41,602 bases of DNA from a virus, in the UHGV virus genome UHGV-0205140, one strand, 5' to 3'. The notes under the pieces were generated by a model. The model worked only from the letters and a program-made list of their open reading frames with translations, was not told where the DNA came from and ran no database searches. The translations under genes and the position numbers were made by a program. This document shows, one piece after another, positions 3,110 through 30,400 of this stretch. Position 1 is the stretch's first letter; every line of letters begins with the position of its first letter.

Positions 3110-3355
3110 ATGGATAATTCCTTACTGGCTGTAAGGGATATTAACCATAAACATATTGTAGTAGGTTTGGAGGAGGAATTGACCCTGAGCGAAGAAGTGA
3201 TAGGAATAAAGGAATGCAGAGATTTACGGATGTATATTCATGAGTTTACAAAAGGCTGTGTTCTGACAAAAGGTGAATATCGGGACATTATGATTGTCCT
3301 GGGAAGGGCGGCCGACCGATTGGAGAAGTCAGGACAGGTAATTCCTGAAAACTGA
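3110..3355 (+). CDS. hypothetical protein
   Basis: ORF with a weak RBS. The call rests on context only. Confidence 0.35.
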   Translation: MDNSLLAVRDINHKHIVVGLEEELTLSEEVIGIKECRDLRMYIHEFTKGCVLTKGEYRDIMIVLGRAADRLEKSGQVIPEN

Positions 3356-3374
3356 CATTTGGTGGAGATGTGAA

Positions 3375-3557
3375 ATGAAGGTACTTGTTACTTGGTTAAA
3401 AAAGAATGGTAATTGTCGATATTGGACGAGTGCCAATGAAACTGAACAGATAGCGATGTCTCTGGTGGGATTAAAAGGAGCTATTCAGAGAATAGCAGAT
3501 AAAAGTAACATTTCTTTTGAGGAAGCCTGGGAAAAAGTATTCCAAAAAGATTTATAA
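3375..3557 (+). CDS. hypothetical protein
   Basis: GGTGGAGATG RBS-like sequence upstream. Confidence 0.4.
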   Translation: MKVLVTWLKKNGNCRYWTSANETEQIAMSLVGLKGAIQRIADKSNISFEEAWEKVFQKDL

Positions 3558-3584
3558 AACCTGACATTTGAGAGGCGAGAAATA

Positions 3585-4468: not shown

Positions 4469-4605
4469 AAATAATTCGTTTTATTCGTTAAATTCGTTTT
4501 ATAATAAAATCCGAAGCCAAAGGCATACAGCCGACGGCTTTCGACCAATACCTCTTCATTGAGTACATGGCCCGGCGTAACAGCTGGGCCGCCCCCCATT
4601 TTATT

Positions 4606-4678
4606 GGATCCTTAGCTCAGCTGGCAGAGCAGGTGGTTGTTAACCACCATGTCACAGGTTCGATTCCTGTAGGATCCG
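4606..4678 (+). tRNA. tRNA-Asn (anticodon GTT)
   Basis: Hand-folded cloverleaf: acceptor GGATCCT/AGGATCC, D arm GCTC-AGCTGGCA-GAGC, anticodon stem GGTGG/CCACC with loop TTGTTAA (GTT), T arm ACAGG-TTCGATT-CCTGT, discriminator G. Confidence 0.8.
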
Positions 4679-4759
4679 TTTGGATGGATACAACATTTTG
4701 TAATTTCTCCTTTGTATGGGTCCCTGCTTTGGCGGGGGCTCTCTTTTTTGTCAACATAT

Positions 4760-10091: not shown

Positions 10092-10107
10092 TGTGCGACG
10101 TCGCAAC
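10092..10107. promoter_or_regulatory. 16-bp element TGTGCGACGTCGCAAC with a 12-bp perfect palindrome core, copy 1
   Basis: Identical 16-mer at 27623-27638. It lies 15 bp upstream of the fibre-gene ATG, between the terminator and the RBS. Confidence 0.45.
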
Positions 10108-10122
10108 AGGGAGGTGAAACCG

Positions 10123-12303
10123 ATGATTGCAGCAGTATTTACAGAGAATAACGATTACGCCCAGGTTTACGGCGTGTGGCAGTGGGATTACGGGCAGGAG
10201 CTGCGGATCCAGGGCCTAAATCTTCCGGCGGCGGTTGAGATTCACTTTGCACTACAGGAAACCGGCGGCGAAGCTGTGACCCGTGTAGGTGTAACGCAGG
10301 ACGGGATAACAACCGTTCCGATCCCGGACAGTATGTTAGAAGGAGCCGGAAACTCTAAGGACTATCAGATCTATGCGTGGGTGTACCTGGCAGATCAGGT
10401 ATCTGGTGAAACGATCAAGCGGATCAAGATGCAGGTCAGGGCAAGACCCATGCCAGAGGCTTTTGAGGCTCCAGAAGATGGGGAGATCTTCCGTCAGGCC
10501 ATCGAGGCCGTCAATGAGGCCGCCAAGAGGGCAGAGGACGCGGGAAAGGAGGCAGTATCCTCCGCGGGTGAGGCCAGGGAGGCGGCCACACAGGCGGGGA
10601 AACATCTGGAAACCGTCCGGGGGTTGGCAGATCAGGCAGAGATTAACGCTGATACCGTGGCACAGGACAAACAGGCAGTAGCCGGTATGCTCTCTCAGGT
10701 GCAGCAGGCGGCCTCAGAAGCGGCCCTGTCGGCAGAGGCAGCCAAGTTATCAGAGACAGCCGCAGGACAGGCCCAAACGGGCGCAGAGGCGGCAGAGGAT
10801 GGGGCAAGGCAGTATGCCGCAGACACGGAGGCAGACCGGCAGGAGGTTGCAAGCGCCAGGCAGGCAGTACAGCAGATGCGTGAGACCGTGGCAGCGGACA
10901 AATCAGAAGTTGAGCAGACAGCAGCAGGTTTTGTAGATACAGCCCGGCAGGCAGTATCAGATGTTAATGCTGCGGGCAAGGCCCAGGTAGATGCTATTAA
11001 GACAGCCGGGCAGGGTGCGTCAAATGCGGTAGAGACAGCCAAAACAACAGCAGTACAGGCAGTCACTGCGGAAGGCGATAAGCAAGTACAGCGAGTGCAG
11101 GAAGCGGCGGCAGGTGTTGAGGCCGATCGGGAGCAGATCAACCAGAATAAGGCCGACATAGCTGGTTTGGCAGAAGGCATAACTGATCTGGCACCGGGGA
11201 TCAAGATTACCACCACCGGCACAGACATCACCATCAAGGACGCCGCCGAGGGCCGGGCGTTTAAGGGGCTGCGGGTGTTTGGGCGGACGGATCAGAAGGG
11301 AACGCCAAGCCCGGAAACTCCGCAGGAGATGGAGACGGCGGGGGAGAGCGGTAGTATTGAGGTATTGGTAGCTGGCAGTAATCTGTTAAAACCCAACAAT
11401 TACAATGTTTTTTGCGAATCTCCGTTGGAAGCAAACACGGTAGTTACTCTTATGACGAATGGAAAAGCATCAAATGGTGGCAATATTAAATTTATCGGAA
11501 CCGATGATTCAAATGTCTGGTTTAGTATTGATAAAGGACAAACCAGGGTTTGCAAATCTATAGGAAGTAAGCCTGTTAAAGGTTTTTATGATTTACTCAC
11601 ACAGACGTCTGGACTAGAATATATGCTTGCCGTTGGTGATGTAAAAACCTATGAATCCTACCGCACCTCCCAGTCCCTTACGCTATCCACCCCAAACGGC
11701 CTTCCAGGGATCCCAGTATCATCCGGCGGCAACTATACAGATGCCAAGGGCCAGCAGTGGGTATGCGACGAGATCGATCTTGGACGCGGGAAGTATGTGC
11801 AGCGGGTAGCAGCCGAAAGCATAAGCGGCGGCTGGAAGTTGGTGGATACTTCAGACGTACCAGGAAGATTTATCCAAAATAACCGTGTGTCCAATGCATA
11901 TGCAAATGGAGGGAAAACCGCACTATGTACTATTGCAGCGTGGACAAATTATGGTGTAAGTAAAGGGGATAATAGATATGTGTTCGTGGTAAGTGGTACT
12001 GCGTTTTATATATCTCCACCATCGGATGTATCCATGACAGCGGACGAACTTAATGCAAAGCTTAATGCATTAAAAGATCCTGTGGTTATACTGGGGCAGC
12101 TTGCCGCCCCCATCGAACGCGGCCTCACCCCGGAAGAGATCGCCGCCTACAAGGCCCTTCGGACGTACAGCCCGACTACGGTTGTGAGCAATGACGCGGG
12201 GTGCCATATGGAGACAACCTATATCGCTGATACCAAGACCTATATCGACAACAAATTTGCGGCCCTTAATAAGACCATATTAGATGCAGTAGGAGGTACA
12301 TAA
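10123..12303 (+). CDS. fibre-like structural protein: BppU-N-like N-terminal domain, about 250-aa Ala/Gln/Glu-rich coiled coil, beta-rich C-terminal receptor-binding-like domain
   Basis: ATG 10123 with a GGGAGGTG RBS (the track ORF starts at an upstream GTG). Architecture and composition as described. Located between MuF and scaffold. Confidence 0.55.
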   Translation: MIAAVFTENNDYAQVYGVWQWDYGQELRIQGLNLPAAVEIHFALQETGGEAVTRVGVTQDGITTVPIPDSMLEGAGNSKDYQIYAWVYLADQVSGETIKRIKMQVRARPMPEAFEAPEDGEIFRQAIEAVNEAAKRAEDAGKEAVSSAGEAREAATQAGKHLETVRGLADQAEINADTVAQDKQAVAGMLSQVQQAASEAALSAEAAKLSETAAGQAQTGAEAAEDGARQYAADTEADRQEVASARQAVQQMRETVAADKSEVEQTAAGFVDTARQAVSDVNAAGKAQVDAIKTAGQGASNAVETAKTTAVQAVTAEGDKQVQRVQEAAAGVEADREQINQNKADIAGLAEGITDLAPGIKITTTGTDITIKDAAEGRAFKGLRVFGRTDQKGTPSPETPQEMETAGESGSIEVLVAGSNLLKPNNYNVFCESPLEANTVVTLMTNGKASNGGNIKFIGTDDSNVWFSIDKGQTRVCKSIGSKPVKGFYDLLTQTSGLEYMLAVGDVKTYESYRTSQSLTLSTPNGLPGIPVSSGGNYTDAKGQQWVCDEIDLGRGKYVQRVAAESISGGWKLVDTSDVPGRFIQNNRVSNAYANGGKTALCTIAAWTNYGVSKGDNRYVFVVSGTAFYISPPSDVSMTADELNAKLNALKDPVVILGQLAAPIERGLTPEEIAAYKALRTYSPTTVVSNDAGCHMETTYIADTKTYIDNKFAALNKTILDAVGGT

Positions 12304-27150: not shown

Positions 27151-27615
27151 ATGAAAGCTAAAGCAATCGAATACACAATAAGTGCAGCTATCGGAGCGTT
27201 TTTCAGTTTCTTTGGAGTGCTGGCAATCCCGTTAGCTTTGCTGATCCCCTGCAATATCATTGACTACTTTACAGGAATGGCAGCATCAAAGGTGAATGGG
27301 GAAAAGATTACAAGCGAAAAGTCATTTGCGGGTATTGTGAAAAAAGTAATGATGTACATACTGATTTTTGTGGGATACGGAATAGACTGTATGATTTCCT
27401 ACGTAGCAGCCAACTTACATATTGAAATGGCGTTTCCGCTGCTGTTCTCCGCGATGGTGGCGTCCTGGCTGGTAATCAATGAGTTGATCAGTATTACGGA
27501 GAATTGTGAGGCGACAGGAGTGGCAATTCCTGTATTAAGTCCGGTATTACGTTTTATAAAGAAAAAGATTGAAACGGTAGTGGATACCCCAGAAGAGGGA
27601 ATAAAGAAAGAATAA
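27151..27615 (+). CDS. holin (TcdE / phage_holin_4_1-like)
   Basis: Three or four TM segments. The KSFAGIVKKVMMYILIFVGYGID motif resembles TcdE/phi-LC3 holins. Located upstream of the endolysin. Confidence 0.65.
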   Translation: MKAKAIEYTISAAIGAFFSFFGVLAIPLALLIPCNIIDYFTGMAASKVNGEKITSEKSFAGIVKKVMMYILIFVGYGIDCMISYVAANLHIEMAFPLLFSAMVASWLVINELISITENCEATGVAIPVLSPVLRFIKKKIETVVDTPEEGIKKE

Positions 27616-27622
27616 GTAGAGC

Positions 27623-27638
27623 TGTGCGACGTCGCAAC
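27623..27638. promoter_or_regulatory. 16-bp element TGTGCGACGTCGCAAC, copy 2
   Basis: Identical to 10092-10107. It sits 8 bp after the holin stop and upstream of the toxin-cassette promoter. Confidence 0.45.
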
Positions 27639-27677
27639 GCAGACAGGCCCAGGGGATTCCTGAGGTCTATATTTTGA

Positions 27678-27706
27678 TTGCGGCATAATTGCTGCTGTGC
27701 TATAAT
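27678..27706 (+). promoter_or_regulatory. promoter with an extended -10 (TGcTATAAT) and a weak -35 (TTGCGG)
   Basis: TATAAT at 27701-27706 preceded by TGc. -35-like TTGCGG at 17-bp spacing. Confidence 0.5.
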
Positions 27707-27754
27707 GCTAACGTTACCGCCTCCGAATCTGGTGACAGAAGGGAGGTGTTTCAT

Positions 27755-27841
27755 TTGGATCACATTCTATCGTTTATCGTCGCTGTTGCGGCTGGTGTAG
27801 CCTGCCACTACATCATCAAATGGTTGGACGGCGACAAGTAA
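27755..27841 (+). CDS. 28-aa hydrophobic peptide MDHILSFIVAVAAGVACHYIIKWLDGDK (Fst/TxpA-like type I toxin candidate)
   Basis: TTG start 8 nt after GGGAGG. A single TM helix followed by a charged tail. An upstream CGCCTCC could pair with the SD. Confidence 0.45.
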   Translation: MDHILSFIVAVAAGVACHYIIKWLDGDK

Positions 27842-27879
27842 TCGGTAACCAGCCTACAGATGCCTGACTGTATAAAATC

Positions 27880-27950
27880 GGAAGAACCCCCAGAAGGTGT
27901 GAGCTTCTGGGGGTTCGTTTGTTTCATTTGGAAACATCCTATCGTTTGCC
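27880..27950 (-). ncRNA. candidate antitoxin small RNA (convergent with the toxin mRNA)
   Basis: Minus-strand near-consensus promoter: TTGCAT (27986-27981), 17 bp, tgcTATAAT (27966-27958). The transcript would run into the shared terminator. It would contain the reverse complement of repeat copy 2 (27921-27947), about 24/28 complementary to copy 1 (27748-27775), which spans the toxin TTG start. Confidence 0.35.
27884..27924. terminator. bidirectional intrinsic terminator
   Basis: Perfect 13-bp stem GAACCCCCAGAAG / CTTCTGGGGGTTC with loop GTGTGAG. T-rich flanks on both strands. Confidence 0.7.
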
Positions 27951-28049
27951 TACTGGCATTATAGCATATGCAGATTTTAAATGCAAGATACCTGAAAATG
28001 ATTTTTGTCCGGTTTTGTACCGGGCTTTTTTATTTGGAGGCAAAGACAT

Positions 28050-28916
28050 ATGGAAAACGCAGTAAAGAAACTCATTGATCAGGCCGCCCATTGGGACGGC
28101 TATCTGGAAAAGAAAAGCAACGCCCAGCTGGATGATTTTACGGCCAATGCCGGCAGCGGCAATTTCACCTGCTTTGCCAGGGACTATAAGACACACACCG
28201 GTCAGAATCTGCAGGCCCAGCCCTGGTGTGCCATGTTCGTATCAGAGGTATTTGTGCAGGCATTTGGTCTGGAGGTTGCTAAGAAACTTCTGGGCGGCAG
28301 CCTGTACCATTATTGCCCCACAGGGGTCAAACAGTTTAAAAAGGCAGGCCGGTGGGCCGCGGTGCCGGAGCCTGGGGCAGTGATCTTCTTTACCAACGGC
28401 CAGAGAGCCTATCATACAGGGATCGTTACAGAGGTGACGGCAACGCGGATCAAGACCATTGAGGGTAATACGTCCGGTGCATCCGGCGTGATTGAAAACG
28501 GCGGCGGGGTGTGCCGGAAGGCTTACAGCCGGTCTTATGGGAAAATTCTTGGCTACGGGCTGCCGGACTGGTCGATTGTCCAGGCCAAGGAAAAGAAAGC
28601 CGGCTGGCAGCAGGAAGATGGCGGCTGGCGGTACTATCTGGGTAATACAGGGGAACCAGTAAAAAATGACTGGTATCAGGATGATGGAAAGTGGTACTGG
28701 TTTGACGGAGCAGGAATGATGGTGTATGATACCTGGTATAAGTATCAGGATCACTGGTATTATCTGGGCGCTGACGGGGCTATGGTCAAAGGTCAGCAGA
28801 CCATAGGCGGCAAGTGGTACATCATGGACGATCGGGGGCGGATGATTATGGAGCCGGTTGTCCTTACTCCGGGTCAGGACGGGGCGCTGCGGTGGCGGGG
28901 GCTGGCGGAAGAGTAA
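28050..28916 (+). CDS. endolysin: N-terminal CHAP domain plus C-terminal cell-wall-binding (choline-binding-like) repeats
   Basis: CHAP Cys motif QPWCAMFVS and His motif PEPGAVIFFTNGQRAYHTGIV. GW..DGGWYY-type repeats at the C-terminus. GGAGG 9 nt upstream of ATG 28050. Confidence 0.75.
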   Translation: MENAVKKLIDQAAHWDGYLEKKSNAQLDDFTANAGSGNFTCFARDYKTHTGQNLQAQPWCAMFVSEVFVQAFGLEVAKKLLGGSLYHYCPTGVKQFKKAGRWAAVPEPGAVIFFTNGQRAYHTGIVTEVTATRIKTIEGNTSGASGVIENGGGVCRKAYSRSYGKILGYGLPDWSIVQAKEKKAGWQQEDGGWRYYLGNTGEPVKNDWYQDDGKWYWFDGAGMMVYDTWYKYQDHWYYLGADGAMVKGQQTIGGKWYIMDDRGRMIMEPVVLTPGQDGALRWRGLAEE

Positions 28917-28949: not shown

Positions 28950-29190
28950 ATTTTTCGTGTTGCATTTTCGTGTTGCATAGTAGTTAAAATACTGCCATAA
29001 ATTGCATTATTAACCACAAAAATTGCATATATTACAATAAGGAAACAATGCATTTGTAAGGATTCTTGGTTTTAAGCAGTTTGTGACTGTATAAACTCAT
29101 AGGTTCGAATCCCGTCTCGCGCTTTTTTATTTGCCCGGTTTTACCGGGCTTTTTTCGTGTCGTGTTGCATTTCGTGTTGCATAGCATTTT
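28950..29190. other. attP region: tRNA 3-prime-end core (29102-29123, GGTTCGAATCCCGTCTCGCGCT) flanked by tandem direct arm-type repeats TTCGTGTTGCAT (28954-28980 and 29154-29184)
   Basis: A partial T-arm plus acceptor 3-prime strand with no matching 5-prime half. Arm repeats lie on both sides, and the right-hand pair lies inside the 3-prime end of int. Confidence 0.55.
29133..29155 (+). terminator. rho-independent terminator closing the lysis operon, overlapping the int stop
   Basis: GCCCGG-TTTTA-CCGGGC followed by TTTTTT. Confidence 0.6.
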
Positions 29191-30400
29191 CCAAAACCTT
29201 ATACCAGCCATCCGGATTGCGTTCTTTAAGGAGTTTTATGAGCTCTTCCGGCGATAGATTTTCTTTGTCACTTGGAGAGGATTTCTCTGGATTGACAATG
29301 CTTTCAAAGTAGTTATCTATGGTATTATCAACACGCACACGCTCATCGGGGAATGTCTGCGTATAGACCTTTTTCATTACCTGATCGGTTTTCCATCCAC
29401 CACGTTCCTGGGCGTACTTGTCTGGGATCCGAAGAAGGGCCATAACAGAAGCGTTGAGATGCCGGAGATCATGGAAGGTAATAGGGGATAGCCCATTATC
29501 ATGCTGCAGCTTAATCCAACGATGATACAGTGCTCGGCCGCTCATCGGTACAAGCACATCACCATCTACCTGATCAATCAGATTCTGTATGTATGGCGGG
29601 ATCTGTAAGCGCCGGTTGCGGGTTGGGTTCTTAGCTAACTCTTTGCGTACCGGTTTATTGTTAATGTCCACGATTACCTCATGGATTGTGATATAGTTTC
29701 CTGAGATGGATTTGGATTTTGTCAAGCCACGGACCTCAGACATGGAGAATGAAAGCCAGGTAGCTAATAACACCGGTAATTCAATATCAGTTCCCTTGAT
29801 GAGGTTTAGGACGGTTTTTGCCGGTGGAAGTTCCACCAATCTGGGAGTAACAGTAGGAAGTTCTATTTGTTCAAAGTCAATCTTATTTACACCGTATTTA
29901 TGCAGCACAGGGCGGATTAGCCCCCATTCATTACGTACGCGCTTGGCAGATATGGGTTTTCCCTTCTTGGCAGGGCTGTTGGTCGGTCTGCGGGCTTCTG
30001 CACTCAGAGCTTCCTGAAGGATCGTTATATCTATGTCTTTGATAGGGGTATCCATCAGATCCGGAAATGCATTCTTCTGGATACAGCGGTAGTCCTGGAG
30101 TGTAGTGGGAGACCGGTTCAGGTTCTCCCTGGATTCAATATATTTGTCAATTGCCTGGGATAAGGTGAGTTTTCCATAATCCTGCCGTTTCCGGATCCTG
30201 TCAGGTGTCTTGGTTGCCTGAAACTGTGCGGCAGCCAGCTCGGCCCGTTTTCGGCCTGCTGGGCTGGGGTCGTCATCGGTAAAGGATTCATAGATCCGTT
30301 TATTTTTCCACTTTTTAGTCTTTTCATCGTATATTCGTTCCGTGTGACTGTAGGCCAGACAGCGCCATGAGCCGGATGGGAGTTTCTTTGCGGTTGCCAT
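29141..30400 (-). CDS. int: tyrosine-type site-specific integrase
   Basis: Catalytic R (SEVRGL), HDLRH box, C-terminal catalytic Y (KKVYTQT). AAGGAGG RBS. Adjacent to attP. Confidence 0.85.
   Translation of the reverse strand: MATAKKLPSGSWRCLAYSHTERIYDEKTKKWKNKRIYESFTDDDPSPAGRKRAELAAAQFQATKTPDRIRKRQDYGKLTLSQAIDKYIESRENLNRSPTTLQDYRCIQKNAFPDLMDTPIKDIDITILQEALSAEARRPTNSPAKKGKPISAKRVRNEWGLIRPVLHKYGVNKIDFEQIELPTVTPRLVELPPAKTVLNLIKGTDIELPVLLATWLSFSMSEVRGLTKSKSISGNYITIHEVIVDINNKPVRKELAKNPTRNRRLQIPPYIQNLIDQVDGDVLVPMSGRALYHRWIKLQHDNGLSPITFHDLRHLNASVMALLRIPDKYAQERGGWKTDQVMKKVYTQTFPDERVRVDNTIDNYFESIVNPEKSSPSDKENLSPEELIKLLKERNPDGWYKVLENAMQHEMQHDTKKAR

Follow-up and report, generated by a model that had tools for sequence, protein, structure and literature searches.

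The virus genome UHGV-0205140, analysed here over its whole stretch of 41,602 nucleotides (nt; hereafter the window), looks like a complete temperate phage genome and has a gap of 434 bp between its holin and endolysin genes. The question raised by this locus is what the gap encodes, and what such an element does in that place. An earlier note on the sequence had recognized in it a cassette of about 430 bp of the type I toxin-antitoxin (TA) kind, with a small membrane peptide as the toxin and a small RNA (sRNA) as the antitoxin. The comparison with related loci points, with high probability, to a par/Fst-type type I TA module of a temperate Lachnospiraceae phage, silenced by an antisense RNA. 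The core of this claim, the pairing of the sRNA with the start region of the toxin gene, is supported by co-variation across the loci. Judging from its sequence features, the closest known system is par/Fst-RNAII of the Enterococcus faecalis plasmid pAD1. The element is largely of a familiar kind; what is new is the unannotated and widespread par/Fst-like clade to which it belongs.

Anatomy of the cassette

The gap (27616-28049) extends from the end of the holin gene at 27615 to the ATG of the endolysin gene at 28050 and contains the whole cassette. The features listed in the earlier note are all located in the sequence, with coordinates that were off by 1-2 nt at most:

27678-27706, plus strand: toxin promoter read in the sequence, with -35 box TTGCGG (27678-83), 17-nt spacer and extended -10 box TGcTATAAT (27698-27706)
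27713-27922, plus strand: predicted toxin mRNA (RNA I equivalent) of about 210 nt, its ends deduced from promoter and terminator
27741-27748, plus strand: Shine-Dalgarno sequence (SD) GGGAGGUG, 8 nt upstream of the start codon
27747-27775, plus strand: repeat copy 1 (DRa 27747-59, DRb 27762-75), covering the end of the SD, the TTG start and codons 2-7
27755-27841, plus strand: toxin open reading frame (ORF) of 28 residues, MDHILSFIVAVAAGVACHYIIKWLDGDK, with TTG start at 27755 and TAA at 27839-41
27884-27916, both strands: shared bidirectional intrinsic terminator, arms 27884-96 and 27904-16 (13 bp, 100% complementary), 7-nt loop
27876-27951, minus strand: predicted antitoxin sRNA (RNA II equivalent) of about 76-78 nt, its ends deduced from promoter and terminator
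27920-27947, plus strand: repeat copy 2 (DRa' 27920-32, DRb' 27934-47), lying in antisense inside the predicted sRNA
27958-27986, minus strand: antitoxin promoter read in the sequence, with -35 box TTGCAT (27986 to 27981), 17-nt spacer and extended -10 box TGCTATAAT (27966 to 27958)

Relatives of the cassette were sought with a 50-residue extended ORF in protein searches and with fully degenerate DNA patterns for the peptide core. The protein search gave 162 relatives with a near-invariant core, VAVAAGVACHYIIKWLD. The DNA pattern is found in 72 IMG/VR viral contigs and in at least 120 bacterial species-representative genomes, nearly all of Lachnospiraceae (Dorea, Blautia, Mediterraneibacter, Enterocloster and Acetatifactor are among the matches listed). 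In total, 161 distinct homologous cassettes encoding 139 distinct peptides were collected. Many of these loci share descent, and their counts are not numbers of independent events; limiting the cross-locus controls described below to divergent pairs lessens this effect. The pattern demanded CHYIIKWLD, with all synonymous codons allowed, and the invariance of the KWLD/CHYIIKWLD motif is therefore partly built in. More distant members outside the pattern read YYICKWLD and HYIIRWLD.

The first of these is in a full, unannotated cassette on the 6.9-kb MobQ/Rep plasmid of the cultured Mediterraneibacter gnavus NBRC 114413 (L194, NZ_CP084015.1, about 3270-3570), and the second in a full, unannotated cassette on a 7-kb circular inovirus-like genome from rodent faeces (L001, PQ006100.1, about 1960-2250). 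Their peptides, slightly divergent, are YYICKWLDKNDW and HYIIRWLDRDHHDN, respectively.

The two promoters are convergent, as in par. In the window, the toxin promoter has the extended -10 box announced by the earlier note (TG at 27698-99, TATAAT at 27701-06), which places the predicted transcription start near 27713, and TGnTAnA(A/C)T occurs at the same position in 130 of the 161 cassettes. On the opposite strand, the antitoxin promoter (TTGNNN, a spacer of 17 nt, or 16 nt in one locus, and TGCTATAAT) is kept in 136 of the 161 and is among the best-conserved parts of the cassette. It had been called near-consensus. This is right for the extended -10 box, which is perfect, but generous for the -35 box, which matches the consensus only in TTG. 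The -35 box of the toxin promoter is no better, which is why a generic promoter scan missed both. From their sequences, the toxin promoter appears weaker and more variable than the antitoxin promoter, the usual asymmetry in type I systems. The -10 regions of the two promoters form an 11-nt inverted repeat.

The perfect 13-bp stem ascribed to the terminator is present, flanked by an A-rich 5' side and a T-rich 3' side, and 82 of 88 relatives have a strong terminator hairpin at the matching position, in 67 different sequences. The predicted sRNA (27951 to 27876) would stop 35 nt downstream of the toxin stop codon, and its overlap with the mRNA is the terminator region only. Its 5' region, which carries anti-DRb and anti-DRa, is predicted to be largely unstructured, with a small weak hairpin, and is followed by the terminator hairpin (-29.3 kcal/mol, z -4.5).

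Co-variation between the predicted antisense RNA and the toxin start region

The earlier note placed a repeat of the toxin start region within the predicted sRNA. This repeat exists, in two parts: DRa and DRa' are identical (13/13), DRb and DRb' agree at 13 of 14 positions, and copy 2 is one nt short between the halves. Copy 2 is transcribed from the minus strand only, so that the sRNA carries its complement. In the duplex prediction which the note had proposed, the first 33 nt of the sRNA pair with the start region (27747-27775) with a predicted energy of -38.7 kcal/mol, compared with -17.9 ± 2.8 kcal/mol for shuffled sequences, none of which reaches this value in 1000 (z -7.4).

The relatives are more informative. 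The 36 nt around the start codon show a mean of 14.9 differences between loci, and yet the two copies match within each locus. Copy 1 scores on average 33.1 against its own downstream region, compared to 15.3 against those of other loci (99th percentile 24), and in 127 of 134 loci the own copy 2 outscores every divergent copy. Predicted duplex energies behave similarly: -35.6 kcal/mol with the own sRNA and -16.6 kcal/mol with a foreign one, the own sRNA being the best partner in 93% of the loci. The two copies are distinguished by an indel in 110 of 111 loci, in most cases because copy 2 lacks 1-2 nt at +4 to +8, which indicates that the contact always consists of two blocks with a bulge between them. 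Selection for RNA-RNA complementarity is the simplest explanation of this co-variation.

Predicted folding of the toxin mRNA

The predicted mRNA (27713-27922; family median length 218 nt) folds with -77.9 kcal/mol (z -3.95), and its fold contains the following elements:

27713-27719, plus strand: 5' arm GUUACCG of a long-range helix (analogue of the par 5'-UH), paired with 27843-49 in the fold
27718-27724, plus strand: anti-SD CGCCUCC, 5' half of an SD-masking stem-loop (analogue of the par 5'-SL), paired with 27742-48
27779-27835, plus strand: coding-region hairpin of the RNAalifold consensus, GUCGCUGUU (27779-87) with GACGGCGAC (27827-35), enclosing an inner stem
27843-27849, plus strand: 3' arm CGGUAAC of the long-range 5'-3' helix, starting 2 nt past the stop codon
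27855-27872, plus strand: small hairpin of the 3' untranslated region (UTR) with a conserved GCCU in its loop, present in the minimum free energy (MFE) structure, its stem varying with compensation in the alignment

In the MFE structure of the window, the first five nt of the mRNA pair with GUAAC just past the stop codon. Across the loci, the helix between the first 7 nt and a heptamer at or just before the stop codon takes four fully compensated forms (GUUACCG:CGGUAAC, GUUGUCC:GGACAAC, GUUGCUC:GAGCAAC and GUUGUCA:UGACAAC), and a fifth, GCUACCA:UGGUAGC, is found on the M. gnavus plasmid. The helix score is at least 6.5 out of 7 in 93% of the loci, compared with 5% when the arms are swapped between classes. 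These values come from helix searches in each locus with cross-locus controls; RNAalifold on a MAFFT alignment gave the coding-region hairpin only, and in that alignment the 5'-3' helices and the terminators of the different subfamilies do not line up.

The pairing of CGCCUCC (27718-24) with GGAGGUG (27742-48), noted earlier as a way to hide the SD, is present in both the MFE and the centroid structures. Of 88 relatives, 63 have a paired SD in their MFE structure, and the alignment has CCUCC/GGAGG versus CCCC/GGGG variants.

The coding-region hairpin shows double-sided changes at 7 of its 18 pairs, and codons 14-22 form its inner stem. The third positions of these codons (27794-27823) are near-invariant over 53 diverse cassettes, despite the synonyms accepted by the search, which suggests a constraint at the RNA level.

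The conserved GCCU occurs both before the 3'-UTR hairpin (27853-27856) and in its loop (27863-27866), and its complement, a conserved AGGC, stands at the 5' end predicted for the sRNA (27948-27951). GCCU/AGGC may be a third, very short contact site between mRNA and sRNA.

The putative toxin peptide

The start register of the ORF is constant across the loci while ATG, GTG and TTG alternate, and the distance to the SD is fixed, with GGAGG or GGGGG at unchanged spacing in 53 cassettes. The fixed register and SD distance indicate a genuine coding sequence. The 139 peptides share the core AGVxCHYIIKWLD. In the window, the TTG-initiated peptide consists of ILSFIVAVAAGVACHYII followed by K-W-LDGDK and has one hydrophobic stretch of 18 residues. 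The single transmembrane helix and charged tail described in the earlier note, together with a tryptophan, correspond to the Fst/Ldr signature. K22, W23, L24 and D25 are invariant in the alignment (KWLD being required by the search pattern), and Gly14 is near-invariant across the relatives.

The alignment of the peptide with PepA1 from Staphylococcus aureus by hhalign is gapless (E 1.3e-4, probability 53%), with Gly14, Trp23 and Leu24 in register. Most Fst/Ldr toxins, though not all, carry a P/D/S/T-xxx-G(C) motif in the transmembrane helix; position 10, where it would begin here, is Ser or Thr in a minority of the relatives. The Fst models of Pfam (Fst_toxin, PF13955) and NCBIfam (type_I_tox_Fst, NF033608) each match 1 of 24 family members. 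It is plausible, on these sequence comparisons, that the peptide is homologous to the Fst-family toxins. The peptide motif was not found in the literature searched.

A holin or antiholin identity was considered for the peptide and rejected: the match to a PHROGs holin is at chance level in the relatives (E 0.17-0.22) and absent for the window peptide, the hydrophobic stretch is single, and a bona fide holin is encoded immediately upstream.

Comparison with known systems

Loci of the par type have convergent promoters, a bidirectional terminator, DRa and DRb repeats over the initiation region, a stem-loop that hides the SD and a helix at the 5' end of the mRNA (PMC7472228). Fst/RNAII and SprA1 are the families whose RNAs pair outside their overlap region, whereas the RNAs of TxpA/RatA and BsrG/SR4 pair within their overlap, which takes in the 3' part of the toxin mRNA with the ORF (PMC8594479, T1TAdb). 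All five of the listed par traits are present in the phage cassette, which resembles par in its convergent promoters and shared bidirectional terminator, in a predicted antisense RNA which, like those of par (about 65-80 nt), is clear of the ORF, in direct repeats read in opposite directions by which the sRNA would cover SD and start codon, and in the two intramolecular elements, the SD-hiding stem and the helix that hides the extreme 5' end. With both par/Fst and SprA1/PepA1 it shares a toxin of about 30 residues whose transmembrane helix is followed by a conserved Trp and a charged tail.

It differs from par in several respects. The peptide is unrecognized by the Pfam and NCBIfam Fst models and has Ala, Ser or Thr instead of the Pro of PxxxG; the CHYIIKWLD core is almost invariant; the hosts are Lachnospiraceae, and phage copies lie in or next to the lysis module. 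Read by eye, the terminator loop of the window has no evident YUNR U-turn.

The earlier note had compared the cassette to txpA/ratA and bsrG/SR4, from prophage-like elements of Bacillus subtilis. Like the cassette, these systems occur in a prophage setting, and they combine a small hydrophobic toxin with a cis-encoded antisense RNA that is transcribed convergently from the 3' side. They are not its closest analogues, because the two RNAs of the cassette overlap in the terminator alone and would make their main contact at the start codon, through a distant repeat. No sequence similarity to them was detected.

The Rfam family RF02442, described as the Streptococcus sRNA SpF66, matches the toxin mRNA over its full length (27713-27927, E 2.8e-8) with 40.9 bits, which falls just below the gathering threshold of 42 bits; 4 of 20 relatives are above it, with 47-52 bits. 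The RF02442 consensus contains an SD and an ORF for MSLILELVLTIIADVIAGIILYFVCKWLDGKE, which ends in ...CKWLDGKE, similar to ...IKWLDGDK in the window. The Rfam "SpF66 sRNA" therefore appears to be a toxin mRNA and not a non-coding RNA. A literature search for SpF66 returned only papers on a malaria vaccine. The Fst homologue Fst-B of S. pneumoniae is toxic in E. coli and has an antisense RNA of 65-75 nt (PMC2887945). Fst-A and Fst-B are chromosomal tandem copies and not phage-borne, and the peptide is about 36% identical to that of the window. SpF66 may correspond to the Fst-A/B locus itself. Rfam files RF02442 as a non-coding sRNA. An Fst-like sequence is also reported in Clostridium bolteae, a member of the Lachnospiraceae (PMC2887945; PMC6563280).

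Two prophage-borne type I systems provide precedents for function. The modules of the Clostridioides difficile prophage phiCD630-1 contribute to prophage maintenance (PMC7699646), and hokW-sokW of the E. coli prophage Sp5 increases phage release about twofold, HokW appearing before the endolysin (PMC8621323). Their two measured roles are those proposed here. Their peptides are unrelated in sequence to that of the window and their RNA layout is different; the NCBIfam model CD_typeI_toxin gives only E 0.034, for 4 of 24 family members.

Genomic context across the family

In the window, the cassette has the following neighbours:

27151-27615: holin (Phage_holin_4_1, from a domain scan), upstream of the gap
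28007-28025, plus strand: second intrinsic terminator, GTCCGGTTTTGTACCGGGC followed by a T-run, directly 5' of the endolysin ribosome-binding site
28050 (ATG): endolysin with CHAP domain and choline-binding repeats (domain scan), downstream of the gap
29141-30400, minus strand: tyrosine integrase

The second terminator is kept in the close relatives L015 and L034 and may insulate the endolysin from the toxin promoter. Since it adds to the shared terminator at 27884-27916, endolysin transcription that starts upstream of the cassette must cross two terminators.

The earlier note considered that a type I TA module inside a lysis cassette would be unusual. The relatives contradict this view. With holin and endolysin seeds as blastx targets, the flanks of the viral loci were scanned out to 1.5 kb. 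The cassette lies between an upstream holin and a downstream endolysin in 17 loci; 8 have a holin upstream and no downstream sequence, and 22 have an endolysin upstream. About two thirds of the viral copies thus flank lysis genes, and all of those are co-oriented with them. The flanking genes belong to four holin families and at least five endolysin types, which suggests that the placement in the lysis module is recurrent. In loci of the L005 type, the ribosome-binding site of the endolysin abuts the antitoxin -35 box; there is no room for a promoter of the endolysin's own, and its mRNA must traverse the cassette. The situation is different in the species-representative genomes, where about 91 of 122 copies are away from recognized lysis genes and the neighbours include Rep_trans and Rep3 replication proteins and ordinary chromosomal genes.

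Proposed mechanism and role

In the par/Fst-type model, a moderately strong promoter would produce an mRNA of about 210 nt for the 28-residue, single-helix membrane peptide. The full-length mRNA would be closed to translation, its 5' end locked with the sequence past the stop codon and the anti-SD over the ribosome-binding site. The stronger and highly conserved convergent promoter would produce an RNA of about 76 nt which ends in the common terminator. This sRNA would contact the mRNA through the complementary terminator hairpins, then zip onto the two adjacent blocks that cover the end of the SD, the start codon and codons 2-7, and ribosome entry would be blocked. Loss of the element, or an end to antitoxin transcription, would leave the shorter-lived RNA to decay; the peptide would then be produced and damage the membrane.

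The most likely role, by analogy with par on pAD1 and with the phiCD630-1 modules, is the stabilization of the prophage or episome. Complete cassettes on a 6.9-kb plasmid and on a 7-kb inovirus-like replicon are what would be expected for a stabilization module. The anatomy of the cassette, its conservation and the co-variation of its pairings, within the mRNA and between the two RNAs, are direct observations on the collected loci.

Several observations weigh against this interpretation. In the searches of the peptide, of the kind proposed in the earlier note, the window peptide has no match in PF13955, NF033608 or PHROGs, a profile search of the PDB with the family alignment recovered neither Fst nor PepA1, and hhalign against Fst itself is weak (probability 6%). 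Ala takes the place of the first residue of the P/D/S/T-xxx-G motif in the window peptide. Only 50 of 88 relatives have the 5' end of the mRNA paired with the 3' arm in their MFE structure. Conservation in the C-terminal half of the peptide goes far beyond what type I toxins usually show, synonymous sites included, which hints at a constraint beyond simple addiction, and the strict co-orientation with the lysis genes is unexplained by a pure addiction role. The transcription of the module, the relative stability of its RNAs, its toxicity and its biological role are inferred.

Alternative roles

The least improbable alternative is that the cassette has been recruited into the late lysis operon and acts as a lysis accessory, instead of or besides addiction. 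The antisense RNA would hold the peptide off in the lysogen; late read-through would carry the toxin ORF while collision silences the antitoxin promoter; and the peptide would depolarize the membrane and help to trigger or synchronize holin-dependent lysis. The frequent, always co-oriented association of the viral copies with lysis genes agrees with this idea, as do the loci of the L005 type, with their endolysin mRNA passing through the cassette, and the HokW precedent on Sp5 (PMC8621323). In contrast, the many genomic copies away from lysis genes and the full cassettes on plasmids indicate that the module works outside lysis operons. The viral loci are also related by descent, and their counts overstate the independent events. 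Temperate phages commonly carry accessory genes between the lysis genes and the integrase, and adjacency could simply reflect tolerated insertion sites. Moreover, two plus-strand terminators precede the endolysin in the window, and the read-through is hypothetical. In its most specific form, the idea is that an Fst-like module has been co-opted in temperate Lachnospiraceae phages as an RNA-gated lysis trigger, the peptide firing the holin. This is again unlikely; if true, a type I TA pair would be an integral timing device of the lysis cassette.

Somewhat less probable still is a role in defence or exclusion (abortive infection or superinfection exclusion) for an antisense-regulated membrane peptide. 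Once an incoming phage had stopped host transcription and the antitoxin RNA had decayed, the infected cell would be killed by the peptide. The architecture would be identical, so the co-variation applies equally to this proposal, and of the three functions usually put forward for TA systems, abortive infection is one (PMC7699646). However, the analysis gave no sign that is specific to defence, the neighbours show no evident defence-island context (PADLOC was not searched), and the review of the family gives no Fst-type module with an experimentally verified defence role (PMC7472228).

Very improbable is the last alternative, that there is no RNA antitoxin at all: the minus-strand promoter would be fortuitous, and the repeat would serve as a protein-binding site or be a partial duplicate of the toxin 5' end in the course of decay. 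In its favour, a bare repeat in a single sequence cannot discriminate between these readings, and the antitoxin -35 box matches only TTG and escaped the generic promoter scan. But a protein site, which the earlier note had named as one of the findings that would overturn its reading, would be conserved between loci, whereas the repeat varies widely between them and matches within each. A duplicate in decay would neither keep in step with its partner across 130 diverged loci nor hold a gap of 1-2 nt, and a fortuitous promoter is hard to reconcile with the conservation of the minus-strand promoter described above (136/161).

Other observations in the window

Large plus-strand ORFs, presumably structural genes, extend up to about 26 kb, and a tRNA-Asn (GTT) gene lies upstream of this block (4605-4679, plus strand). 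A 16-nt palindrome, TGTGCGACGTCGCAAC, occurs twice: at 10092-10107, after a terminator and before a ribosome-binding site and ATG at 10124, and at 27622-27637, just past the holin stop codon. The palindrome may serve the late operon as an operator or as an RNA hairpin signal. Allowing for one mismatch at most, TGCGACGTCGCA is present upstream of the toxin promoter in 18 of the 161 cassettes, and overlaps the toxin -35 box in L051 and L070.

Two further candidates were rejected. A 48-residue ORF that starts in repeat copy 2 (27919-28065) has no SD, and the sequence downstream is not conserved. A stretch at the endolysin ribosome-binding site (28026-38) is 85% identical to DRa, and this apparent third copy had suggested that the sRNA might also target the endolysin; the idea was discarded because the relatives L015 and L034 show no co-variation at 28026-38.

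Implications

The Fst/par family gains a large unannotated clade, present in at least 120 Lachnospiraceae species, 72 viral contigs, small plasmids and an inovirus-like replicon. Its hosts are abundant bacteria of the human gut without characterized type I systems of such a clade. Since the peptide is undetected by Pfam, NCBIfam and PHROGs, it is missed by routine annotation. The natural variation of the cassettes amounts to a large compensatory-mutation experiment, which supports the par model, with bipartite antisense pairing, a 5'-end helix and masking of the SD. The recurrent, co-oriented placement in lysis modules is a concrete link between type I toxins and phage lysis, and a cultured strain, M. 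gnavus NBRC 114413, bears the cassette on its 6.9-kb plasmid.

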